In this document: positions 305 through 6,600 of the stretch, piece by piece
Layout of the letters: each line of letters begins with the position of its first letter
How positions within the stretch are numbered: the stretch's first letter is position 1
IMG/VR virus record: IMGVR_UViG_3300044297_000019
Coordinates: 1 to 30,395 of that record
Length of the DNA: 30,395 bases
DNA from: a virus
Lineage: Duplodnaviria; Caudoviricetes
Strand: one strand, 5' to 3'
Program-made: the position numbers and the translations under genes
Notes under the pieces: model-generated
Told to the model about the DNA's origin: nothing
The model's database searches: none
What the model saw: the letters and a program-made list of their open reading frames with translations, nothing else

Positions 305-471
305 TTTGCGAAAACTGTAAGATGGCAGGTGAGTTCAACGCTCACGCTAAGCCAGCACTTGCACAAGCAAAGCATCAAGAGTGCGAGAAGGGTTGTGTAT
401 GTCAACACAAGGTTGGTCCAGAGTACGTCGCAAAGGCAAAGGTAAAGCCGATGCAAGTACAATCTCCATAA
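301..471 (+). CDS. 56-aa Cys/His-rich (probable Zn-binding) hypothetical protein
   Basis: MICENC...HQECEKGCVCQH; ATGA overlap with the previous gene. Confidence 0.65.
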   Translation: MICENCKMAGEFNAHAKPALAQAKHQECEKGCVCQHKVGPEYVAKAKVKPMQVQSP

Positions 472-770
472 CAACTATTGTTTTGCATTACGGAGGGGAA
501 GTAAAAGAGGGACGTAACGTATCGGTGAAGTGTTGTATACACCACGACACACGCAGGTCAGCAGTCATTGATACCTACAACAATTTATATTTTTGCCACA
601 CCTGCGGTAAAGGTGGAAGCGCAGTAGATGTGGTGATGGAGAAGGAAGGATTAGGTTTTAAGGATGCTATTAACAGAGCAGAAGAAATCGTTGCTGGAAG
701 CGGTGACACATTACAGCAATCATCTCAGCGACGAGGCGCTAAATTATCTCGACGAACGTGGAATATCTAA
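399..770 (+). CDS. DNA primase zinc-binding (CHC2) subunit
   Basis: CCIHHDTRRSA...YFCHTCGKGGSAVDVVMEKEGLGFKDA matches the zf-CHC2 pattern. Confidence 0.85.
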   Translation: MSTQGWSRVRRKGKGKADASTISITTIVLHYGGEVKEGRNVSVKCCIHHDTRRSAVIDTYNNLYFCHTCGKGGSAVDVVMEKEGLGFKDAINRAEEIVAGSGDTLQQSSQRRGAKLSRRTWNI

Positions 771-1305
771 CCAAGTAGCACAGCAGTTCTCGCTAGGAAC
801 TATCGTCGACCCTATCAATGGACACGAAGCATTTACTGGGTGGCTATGTATCCCATACTTCACTGCTCTAGGTGATGTGACTATTGTTAAGTTCCGCAGG
901 TTAGATGATGGCAAGCCAAAGTATGGACAGCCTGTTGGTCAGAAGACTCATCTATTTAATGTCTCAGATACTCTTGCTGATTCACCACGCATTGTTATCT
1001 GCGAAGGTGAACTTGATGCGATAGTGTTATCGGGAGTGATAGGAATACCAGCAGTTGGTGTACCTGGTGTTGCCTCGTGGAAGAATTACTATGCAAAGTT
1101 GTTTAATGGTTTTGATACGGTTTATATTGCTGGTGATAATGACATCAAAGAGGATGGCTCCAACCCTGGCGCTGAGTTCTCAAGGCGTGTCGCTGGTGAT
1201 TTAATTAACGGACAAATAGTACAATTACCCGCAGGTATGGATATAAACGACTTCTATCTGGCCAACGGGTTAGAGAATACAGCCAACCTAGTAGGAGGAA
1301 AGTGA
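664..1305 (+). CDS. DNA primase catalytic TOPRIM subunit
   Basis: YLDERGI, ICEGELDA, AVGVPG, AGDND, DINDFY motifs. Confidence 0.9.
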   Translation: MLLTEQKKSLLEAVTHYSNHLSDEALNYLDERGISNQVAQQFSLGTIVDPINGHEAFTGWLCIPYFTALGDVTIVKFRRLDDGKPKYGQPVGQKTHLFNVSDTLADSPRIVICEGELDAIVLSGVIGIPAVGVPGVASWKNYYAKLFNGFDTVYIAGDNDIKEDGSNPGAEFSRRVAGDLINGQIVQLPAGMDINDFYLANGLENTANLVGGK

Positions 1306-1718: not shown

Positions 1719-2101
1719 GTAGTTTCTCATCGTTTGATTTAGACTTCGAGTATGGAGTTGATGGAGAGAAGTTAGTCTCCGACCTGCTCTTAGGTAAAAA
1801 GACTATTGAAGTTAAGCGTGACCGCAAGTGGATTAAGACTGGCAATATCTACATAGAAACTGAGTGCTTCTTTACCAAGTCAAACTCGTGGGAGTTATCA
1901 GGTTTATCTGTTACCAAGGCTGGCTACTGGGCTTTTGTCATTGAAGAATCTATTGTCATCATACCCACTGATACCTTGCGCTTTGCTGTCAATGTCTACG
2001 GCAAGGAAATCTCCTGCCATATCCCACCGAATTTATCCAAAGGATTTCTTCTCACACCAGAACAACTTATCAGCGCAACAAAGGACTATCCTCGTGACTG
2101 A
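1715..2101 (+). CDS. PD-(D/E)XK nuclease-like phage protein
   Basis: FDLDFEYGVDGE...TIEVKRD...TGNIYIE motif; ATGA coupling. Confidence 0.55.
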   Translation: MSSFSSFDLDFEYGVDGEKLVSDLLLGKKTIEVKRDRKWIKTGNIYIETECFFTKSNSWELSGLSVTKAGYWAFVIEESIVIIPTDTLRFAVNVYGKEISCHIPPNLSKGFLLTPEQLISATKDYPRD

Positions 2102-2900: not shown

Positions 2901-2932
2901 AAGACCCCCGCCGAAAGGGTAGCGGAGGTCTT
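2901..2932 (-). terminator. Intrinsic terminator hairpin between convergent operons
   Basis: Minus strand aagacctccgc / gcgggggtctt 11-bp stem (one U-G), followed by a T-rich tail; lies between convergent stops at 2899 and 2948/2952. Confidence 0.6.
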
Positions 2933-2947
2933 AAGCCTAATCGTACA

Positions 2948-3226
2948 CTAACTAGTAGTGGTTGTGTCTAATGTGGTATTTCCACGCTCTACAAGGTGTT
3001 GAGTATCTCGTAGAAATGTATCTAAGACCGTGGAGAATTTGGATTGCAGGTCTTCTATCCTTTTCTCCAAGGAGTTGAGCAATTCCGTAAGCGCTACTTC
3101 TTGGGTTGTCTGCGTATTGGTCAAACCTGCTCTCACTGGTCCAAAGGGCGTTAAGGCACGACCATTCTCTTCCTCTCCACCCGTAACCAGCCGAAGCGTA
3201 GGTCTTTGCGAGTAATCTATTGGCAC
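2948..3226 (-). CDS. 92-aa coiled-coil protein overprinted on the transglycosylase gene
   Basis: AAGGAG RBS just before the GTG start; heptad segment LTELLNSLEKRIEDLQSKF. Confidence 0.45.
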   Translation of the reverse strand: MPIDYSQRPTLRLVTGGEEENGRALTPFGPVRAGLTNTQTTQEVALTELLNSLEKRIEDLQSKFSTVLDTFLRDTQHLVERGNTTLDTTTTS

Positions 3227-3386
3227 GTTTCTCCTTCCACGTTGCTTGTTTGCTCGTTATCTTACTCTGTTTGTGTATCGGTGTGTGAGCCGTTTGTACT
3301 CCCACTATTAACAGCAGGCACGAGAGTAGTACCGCTAATGTCCAACCATTTCTTTCCCGTTTCCTCATCTGCCTTAAACTCCTCAT
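2952..3386 (-). CDS. Membrane-anchored/secreted lytic transglycosylase (SLT-like, actinobacterial type)
   Basis: N-terminal basic region plus hydrophobic helix; CLNALWTSES...NPRSSAYGIAQ...GLRYISTRYSTPCRAW. Confidence 0.85.
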   Translation of the reverse strand: MRSLRQMRKRERNGWTLAVLLSCLLLIVGVQTAHTPIHKQSKITSKQATWKEKRANRLLAKTYASAGYGWRGREWSCLNALWTSESRFDQYADNPRSSAYGIAQLLGEKDRRPAIQILHGLRYISTRYSTPCRAWKYHIRHNHY

Positions 3387-4953: not shown

Positions 4954-4986
4954 TATGTTTCCCTTTCGTGATTAGCCCCTACTTGT

Positions 4987-5041
4987 TAGGTGGCTACCTC
5001 CTCCCATAGTCTCGCAACTATGAGAGAAAGTAAAGCACCTA
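4987..5041 (-). promoter_or_regulatory. Long RNA stem-loop with GCGA tetraloop (candidate processing site)
   Basis: About 24 bp paired with five G-U pairs on the minus strand and one small internal loop. Confidence 0.55.
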
Positions 5042-5337: not shown

Positions 5338-5502
5338 CTATGCCCCTCTCTTTGCTAGATATTGCGCTAGTTGCTCATCACACTTAGCGCGGAAGCAGGT
5401 ATCGCATAGGCGATAGGTAGGTGACTCTGAGTGGTATCCCTTGCCCTGACCGCACTTGTCGCAAGGGCGGATGTATGAAGGAACCTTGAATTTCTTTGCC
5501 AT
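5338..5502 (-). CDS. 54-aa zinc-finger early protein
   Basis: CDKCG...LCDTCF; AAAGGG RBS directly after the ribozyme. Confidence 0.65.
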   Translation of the reverse strand: MAKKFKVPSYIRPCDKCGQGKGYHSESPTYRLCDTCFRAKCDEQLAQYLAKRGA

Positions 5503-5519
5503 TTCTTTACCCTTTCTCT

Positions 5520-5582
5520 TTGGTCTGGCTCATCAGTAGGGGGAGACCAATCCGCCCTAGACCCCCGTGAGGGGGTTTCGCC
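5520..5582 (-). ncRNA. Hammerhead ribozyme, type II with pseudoknot
   Basis: Minus strand: GGC-GAAA-CCCCC(UCAC)GGGGG-UC^UAGGG...CCCUA-CUGAUGA-GCC; loop I UUGGUCU pairs with the 3' tail AGACCAA. Confidence 0.93.
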
Positions 5583-5841: not shown

Positions 5842-5870
5842 AGAATATATGAGCACATAGTATATGTCAA
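5842..5870 (-). promoter_or_regulatory. Sigma70/SigA-type early promoter
   Basis: TTGACA (5870-5865), 17-nt spacer, TATTCT (5847-5842); a 5' hairpin tcggc/gccga lies in the leader. Confidence 0.85.
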
Positions 5871-6304
5871 TAGCAGAATCTAGCGCGTGTCGGTCAATAA
5901 TCGGTCATCACTTTAGCACCGTCTAATCAAGCATTACCATTGATTAGACTTGAGCAACGCCTTGCCGTTGCCACCGTTTATCGGTGTCTATTAGGACAGA
6001 TGTTCGACGGTTAGGCGGGGTGTATCGGCGGTGAAAGGCTGAGGGTTTATTAAGTGGCTCTGTCTGGAAATTGTTAGAAAAGGGAGCAAGTTGGAAATCG
6101 TCAGAGTGCCGAAGGGGTAGCACCTCTCCCTTTCTCCCCTTTTCTCTCCCTTTTACTCCAAACAAATTATCCTACGGGAAAAAGACGACCCCCTCATTTT
6201 AAAATTTAGCCCACCCAGCCCCATACTCCCACAATAAATATTTCGACTAAAGTAAAAGGGTTATATTGGCTGTCCTACTTTGTCCGTATTTTAATAACTA
6301 TTTT

Positions 6305-6320
6305 AGTGAGGTTCGTCACA
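6305..6320. promoter_or_regulatory. CRP/GlxR-like operator
   Basis: aGTGA-ggttcg-TCACA, a 9/10 match to TGTGA-N6-TCACA. Confidence 0.4.
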
Positions 6321-6600
6321 AACGTGGGAAATCACCTATTTTTCCCGCCTTATATATAGTAGGGGAGTAAAACTCCCTGGCTTACGTTTTACGACCCGTA
6401 CCTCGCTACACTGCCGTTACGCGAGGCCCCTCGGCCGAGCACCAACTTACCCCTTGCTGCGCTGTGGCTTGCAAGGGAGTTAAACACCGCTGTGCGGTGC
6501 ATTGCACCGCTTTTAGTGGGGATAGTTCTATCATTTTACAAATAATCATTTTCCTCCCCGCCGAGATAAAATCTATCTCGCGCCGCGCCAAAGGAAGCCC

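Follow-up and report, generated by a model that had tools for sequence, protein, structure and literature searches.

The window analysed here, a stretch of 30,395 nt, derives from a 75%-complete caudoviral record and encodes terminase, major head, tail, primase and sigma-like genes. On its minus strand lies a leftward operon of small genes, interrupted by two structured RNA spacers and ending with a transglycosylase-like gene (2952-3386, minus strand) before a terminator-like hairpin (Table 1). The earlier note had called gene 1 the first early gene, a placement supported by the promoter-like site at 5870-5842, a match that is weak taken alone, since the pattern occurs at 3 sites in the window against 4.8 in shuffles. 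Similar promoter-like sites lie upstream of the gene-1 orthologues in L001 and L003. We infer the early status of the operon from its layout, namely a promoter-like start, small genes of no known family and a terminator-like end. Gene 1 itself yielded no PHROGs match and no Pfam family over the cut-off, nor did a comparison with 50,697 phage records return one. The nearest named phages by terminase are Streptomyces Beephvirinae (43-44%), which points to an actinobacterial host; the Shine-Dalgarno style is presumably a further pointer, and a scan of genome contigs returned one short MAG contig, without the early region, that was uninformative on the host. Between the leftward promoter and the terminase, about 650 nt (5944-6600) of purine tracts and hairpins without a convincing gene may contain the genome ends. 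The DNA primase at 381-1305 (plus strand) is carried by two overlapping ORFs (129 and 213 aa), either a natural split or a frameshift, and bears the same annotation in Streptomyces phage WRightOn.

Table 1. Features of the leftward operon and its two RNA spacers (positions in the window)
Feature	Position	Strand	Basis or remark
Sigma70-type promoter-like site, TTGACA-17-TATTCT (10 of 12)	5842..5870	-	putative head of the leftward small-gene operon
Gene 1, 70 aa	5582..5794	-	last base of TAG lies in hammerhead stem II
Type II hammerhead ribozyme with loop I/3'-tail pseudoknot	5520..5582	-	Rfam, core reading, folding, covariation
Stem II, 5' strand GGC	5582-5580	-	sequence reading
GAAA core	5579-5576	-	sequence reading
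Stem III	5576-5571 paired with 5566-5561	-	sequence reading
GUC cleavage triplet	5562-5560; C17 = 5560	-	sequence reading
Predicted cut	between 5560 and 5559	-	from GUC triplet
Stem I	5559-5552 (C5554 bulged) paired with 5543-5537	-	sequence reading
Loop I UUGGUCU, pseudoknot 5' strand	5550-5544	-	sequence; covariation
CUGAUGA core	5536-5530	-	sequence reading
Stem II, 3' strand GCC	5529-5527	-	sequence reading
AGACCAA, pseudoknot 3' strand	5526-5520	-	7 bp complementary to loop I; covariation
Shine-Dalgarno-like GAAAGGG of gene 2	5510..5516	-	outside the ribozyme fold; ATG at 5502
Gene 2, 54 aa, two CxxC motifs	5338..5502	-	opens a block of three adjoining genes (5502-5056)
Long irregular helix serving as second spacer, in the gene 4/gene 5 gap, with alternative 3' hairpin	4973..5041	-	no Rfam match; RBS of ORF 4953-4594 follows
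Helix pairings	UAG 5041-5039 with CUA 4989-4987; CUUU 5030-5027 with GAGG 5000-4997	-	
Helix 3' hairpin	4996-4973	-	mutually exclusive with helix
Gene 5, ORF downstream of helix module	4953-4594	-	own RBS after helix
Terminator-like hairpin	2904..2920	-	putative end of the leftward operon, after the transglycosylase-like gene

The spacer after gene 1 has the core of a hammerhead ribozyme (CUGANGA, GAAA and an NUH triplet, here CUGAUGA, GAAA and GUC) and the type II topology, in which loops close stems I and III and stem II is open, together with 7 bp between loop I and the 3' tail, where at least 4 bp are expected of the pseudoknotted form. Re-reading of the sequence confirmed the intact minus-strand core and the predicted cut at 5560/5559 described in the earlier note, and the three stems and the UUGGUCU/AGACCAA pseudoknot that it described were borne out by sequence, minimum free energy (MFE) stems and covariation. 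The Rfam Hammerhead_II model (RF02276), which the same note had named as a check, matched 5583-5519 with 49.1 bits (gathering threshold 37, E 2.3e-7), with no second Rfam match in the whole window. The core-plus-tail pattern occurs once in the window and in 0 of 100 shuffles. The RNAfold MFE structure of the 63-mer consists of stems I-III, with an unremarkable energy (z -1.0) computed without the pseudoknot. In an alignment of eight hand-picked pseudoknot-type relatives, one row of which is shifted by one column in stem III, 92% of cells pair against 35-46% in slid controls, and both sides change in 8 of 18 pairs, including two of the four pseudoknot pairs, compensatory changes that support the fold. 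The first G of the ribozyme is, as claimed, the last base of the upstream stop, G5582 ending the TAG of ORF 5794-5582. The tail had been described as running straight into the ribosome binding site (RBS), which does follow closely, but GAAAGGG begins 4 nt past the pseudoknot strand and outside the fold.

Type II hammerheads with this pseudoknot had been said to occur in phage intergenic regions in a largely unknown role, in agreement with PMC3088659 and PMC6765202. Perreault 2011 (PMC3088659) describes them in clusters flanking prophage genes, reports that 14 of 18 consensus hammerheads were active and that clustered prophage copies cleaved ~2-kb transcripts both in E. coli and in vitro, notes that the 5' end of an early halovirus transcript had been placed no more than 3 nt from a hammerhead site, and proposes processing into operon- or gene-length mRNAs; a 2019 review (PMC6765202) still describes the purpose of phage hammerheads as undefined. 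The element studied here shares with those of Perreault 2011 the permutation, the core, the pseudoknot and an intergenic place among variable small genes. Unlike their clusters, with at least two copies bracketing genes, it is single in a record that is 75% complete, and the next boundary is occupied by a helix outside Rfam. Relatives L015, L096 and L183 hold two to three hammerheads each, and the viral contigs L323, L375 and L320-L322 carry arrays of three to six of type II, one per small gene. Judged from its sequence, the hammerhead is very probably active, and self-cleavage of the mRNA after gene 1 appears likely from the canonical core, the stem and pseudoknot covariation and the activity rate in Perreault 2011. 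Hammerheads of this kind in phages, and the proposal that long transcripts are processed by them, go back to that study.

The contents of the same slot in relatives were compared for the best 80 of 95 viral and the best 80 of 173 metagenomic loci with a gene-1 relative. After removal of duplicates, two truncated loci and short proteins, and with 16 rows relabelled by eye, the resulting table of 119 rows (the window included) has a hammerhead in 10, a long helix in 19, a mini-tRNA in 17 and other contents in 38, while in the remaining 35 the spacer is wholly absent and the genes are directly coupled. A supported clade of the ten closest gene-1 orthologues (63-79% identical to that of the window) comprises four with hammerheads, of two sequence types, five with helices and one with a mini-tRNA. 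In a 45-row gene-1 tree of element-bearing rows only, built on 73 columns and poorly resolved, the well-supported branches force at least five hammerhead gains or losses. Among 47 terminase-anchored relatives (those of 80 loci with ~2.5 kb or more upstream), the hammerhead is found in 7, the helix in 37 and neither in 8. No hammerhead precedes any of seven gene-2 homologues read by eye, four of which simply adjoin the upstream gene. In the closest relative, L096, a hammerhead at 1768-1846 (minus strand) with the same pseudoknot and a U4C core (CCGAUGA), a variant mentioned in Perreault 2011 (PMC3088659), stands before the gene 3 orthologue and, as the window also shows, a helix lies ahead of a gene similar to gene 5. 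By these comparisons the hammerhead is optional, dispensable and exchangeable with two non-catalytic-looking RNA modules.

The helix module has the consensus UAG-N(6-8)-CUWU-[variable stem-loop]-RWRG-N(6-8)-CUA, and a descriptor of it returned 70 rows against one when the same 1.2 Mb were shuffled; about 90 distinct copies occur in the lineage. In 25 copies, picked by a descriptor that demands some of the pairs in question, the helix comprises 24 pairs with 88% of cells paired, and both sides change in 19 of the 24. The 3' arm can refold as a hairpin of its own in 59 of 81 copies (30 expected). Searches against Rfam gave no match at gathering in 80 loci and, by E-value in six loci and one 501-nt stretch, weak miRNA, snoRNA and lncRNA matches far below cut-off. 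A model, R1, whose source alignment includes the copy of the window, gave a marginal match in WRightOn (E 0.039), matches in 2 of 100 other hammerhead-bearing loci and none in T7; the motif therefore looks lineage-restricted. An attC-like integron site was considered for the helix and rejected, a tyrosine recombinase (PF00589) being found in none of five relatives 90-100% complete; none was seen among the 38 window ORFs scanned. HDV-like, pistol and twister-sister ribozymes were rejected by inspection for both the helix and the mini-tRNA, on account of the wrong topology and of conserved bases within helices.

Five T7 intergenic regions (NC_001604), which by name and role we take to be the RNase III processing hairpins between early genes, were folded for comparison with the helix module; the likeness concerns that module and not the hammerhead. 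Both systems have the layout stop, irregular helix, RBS, and at three of the five T7 stems U-G and A-U pairs occupy the same upper-stem register (determinants in PMC1540722). The 24 pairs of the helix exceed the ~20 bp of an RNase III substrate, and the U-G of the distal box is present at the matching register in 74 of 105. Unlike the T7 hairpins, the helix has dyad-like UAG-N7-CUA boxes, an alternative 3' hairpin and a proximal box, expected to read G-C and then A-U/U-A without G, that conforms only in part: by the T7 rules, which are not actinobacterial, the key pair has no G in 55% of the 105. The helix centre is 39-81% paired, whereas pairing next to the cut exceeds 90% at B. subtilis RNase III sites. 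The fit to RNase III is thus partial: the U-G/A-U register is shared with T7, while proximal box and central pairing agree less well. An RNase III domain was found in none of five near-complete relatives, and an RNase III acting on the helix would therefore be that of the host.

The third module, present in relatives (L009:1347-1407, L029:3207-5601, L053:3151-3862 and others) and absent from the window, is built from an acceptor-like stem, a short hairpin and a T-arm; a further hairpin and an RBS usually come after it. An AC-N-A trailer is found in 28 of 37 candidates and in no shuffle; it reads ACGA, ACAA or ACUA in all 28 and never ACCA. Both sides change in 9 of 12 pairs among 25 copies. 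Acceptor-like stems with a T-arm and no anticodon are known as processing signals at transcript boundaries from mascRNA and plant mitochondrial t-elements, to which the mini-tRNA compares in all three respects and in its place at a transcript boundary; it differs in occurring in relatives rather than in the window, in its never-ACCA trailer and in the lack of an Rfam match in the loci searched.

Across 160 distinct elements (90 helices, 42 mini-tRNAs and 28 hammerheads), module class tracks the downstream gene and not the upstream gene at matched identity. Pairs of elements with homologous downstream genes share their class in 41 of 47 cases at 45-65% identity and in 57 of 61 at 65-85%; for homologous upstream genes, the figures are 86 of 206 and 17 of 33 (in each case the pairs are not independent). 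Some downstream families are still mixed in class. Since class follows the downstream gene, each module behaves as a leader plus RBS, and because it moves together with the gene that it precedes, small early genes could be rearranged, each bringing along a finished 5' end that does not depend on context.

We therefore consider that all three modules, which fill the same gap in close relatives, likely mark cut points in the early message, and our favoured reading, held with somewhat better than even confidence, is that the hammerhead cleaves the early polycistronic mRNA and belongs to a set of three interchangeable leader modules, by which the operon would be divided into pieces that are each protected on their own. 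Constitutive self-cleavage at the predicted site, 22 nt past the gene 1 stop and 57 nt before the gene 2 ATG, would leave the gene 1 message with the stem III hairpin and a 2',3'-cyclic phosphate at its 3' end, and the message of genes 2-4 would begin at a 5'-OH whose base is paired within stem I, together with the pseudoknot, its RBS and ATG unsequestered. The hammerhead would work alongside sites that are likely targets of host nucleases: the helix would be a substrate of a host dsRNA nuclease, RNase III being the best candidate, its 3' arm refolding as a 5' hairpin after the cut, and RNase P or RNase Z would process the mini-tRNA. Cleavage of the helix and of the mini-tRNA is putative, and the property common to the three modules would most simply be a cut, self-made, RNase III-like or RNase P/Z-like. 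Against this punctuation stands the dispensability of the hammerhead, in view of the 7 of 47 terminase-anchored relatives, the 0 of 7 gene-2 homologues and the 35 of 119 gene-1 rows without a spacer.

A cut might instead serve as a decay signal, its 5'-OH product passing to a 5'-3' exonuclease as in glmS and so lowering or timing the downstream genes. RNase J requires unpaired 5' bases, and folding places the new 5' base in a stem I pair. Moreover, module class goes with the downstream gene, and a structure remains ahead of the RBS whichever the class. In favour of a decay signal stands the glmS ribozyme (PMC3328962, PMC11780869), whose 5'-OH product is degraded by RNase J1 and which resembles the hammerhead in cutting itself within a bacterial mRNA so that a 5'-OH precedes a coding sequence. 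The glmS ribozyme responds to a ligand and sets off decay, whereas the window hammerhead has no ligand pocket and its new 5' end is, by prediction, paired. The altered stability or translation that the earlier note proposed for the downstream genes could thus go either way: a cut may stabilise the downstream RNA or, as in glmS, destabilise it, and we regard a role as a decay signal as improbable.

We assign a similarly low probability to the view that the modules are mainly structured leaders, or repeated DNA for cassette recombination, with cleavage incidental or nearly neutral. Their patchy distribution and frequent swaps would be in keeping with it, as would the near-identical copies that recur within one contig. 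Under such a view, however, one would have to account for an unchanging catalytic core beside stems that vary by compensatory changes, and for U-G pairs of the helix that are conserved only on the mRNA strand; the recombinase result in the five near-complete relatives also argues against attC-like sites.

The fusion of the ribozyme to a stop codon had been presented in the earlier note as though it were special, which was not borne out. An unselected sample was obtained by scanning 1/64 of the viral collection with a pattern in which no stop was specified, giving 134 loci, 115 distinct motifs past the stem check and 113 with enough upstream sequence; the whole collection would hold about 8,100 stretches with the type II pattern by estimate. 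A stop closing an open frame of at least 45 codons ends 2-7 nt before GAAA in 73 of these 113 viral type II hammerheads, against 3 of 113 in a 6-nt bin on the opposite strand, and is thus the norm. A Shine-Dalgarno-like site and a start follow in 92 of 113, the median distance from the cut being 55 nt. The window hammerhead, with 2 nt from stop to GAAA and 57 nt from cut to ATG, is typical of the sample: it is a common element in the usual phage place, between small genes.

That close fit bears on a translation-gated switch, in which a ribosome at the gene 1 stop would unfold stems II and III (or the outer helix), so that cutting or downstream initiation depends on upstream translation. In the lineage, the stop ends 2-4 nt before GAAA in 24 of 28 hammerheads and is itself the closing triplet of the helix in 74 of 90, and the helix has its mutually exclusive 3' hairpin, all of which would suit such gating. 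However, the tight fit is general in viral hammerheads and tight genome packing may be enough to explain it, the UAG of the window's own helix is not the stop, and module class does not track the upstream gene. Folding gives little support: predicted RBS accessibility is alike in the cut and uncut RNA (0.72 and 0.71), and pairing with gene 1 sequence yields a competing fold with an advantage of just 1.4 kcal/mol, the pseudoknot uncounted. Conserved inhibition through pairing with the coding sequence upstream was rejected as well, the gain ranging over 0-7.6 kcal/mol across the 28. We consider gating unlikely. Inactivity or very slow cleavage in vivo, through misfolding of the stem III G-run onto the stem I C-run, is less probable still. 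That pairing does appear in folding once the 5' part is removed, and Perreault 2011 (PMC3088659) found no activity in 4 of 18 consensus hammerheads; against it, stems I-III are the MFE structure of the isolated motif and the 7-bp pseudoknot adds unmodelled stability.

Returning to punctuation of the operon, a more far-reaching form of it is put forward tentatively, at somewhat less than even confidence: a three-letter RNA punctuation code in which the hammerhead, the dyad-like UAG-N7-CUA helix with its refolding 3' hairpin and the CCA-avoiding mini-tRNA would be equivalent portable 5'-leader cassettes, the helix perhaps being a new cleavage signal and not a textbook RNase III site. If true, the equivalence of the modules would explain the purpose of phage hammerheads, and if all three are interchangeable and all give cuts, their function would be mRNA punctuation. 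The terms "stop codon" and "RNase" are absent from the main text of PMC3088659, where abutment on the stop and exchange with nuclease modules are therefore not discussed. In a literature search thin on subscription papers, we found no report of hammerhead, helix and tRNA-mimic exchange in phage operons, which is weak evidence of novelty; PMC5737381 could contain related motifs, and PMC13725137 concerns eukaryotic RNA viruses. What the present comparison adds to the 2011 work is that the ribozyme is optional and swappable, with module type tied to the downstream gene. The purpose of phage hammerheads has been in question since 2011, and natural swaps behind near-identical genes make it testable. 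A bench model is offered by the cultured distant relative WRightOn (L440:36594-43900), in whose leftward small-gene region no hammerhead pattern was found, and where long irregular hairpins lie between the stop and a shared RBS in most gaps, between equivalent genes.
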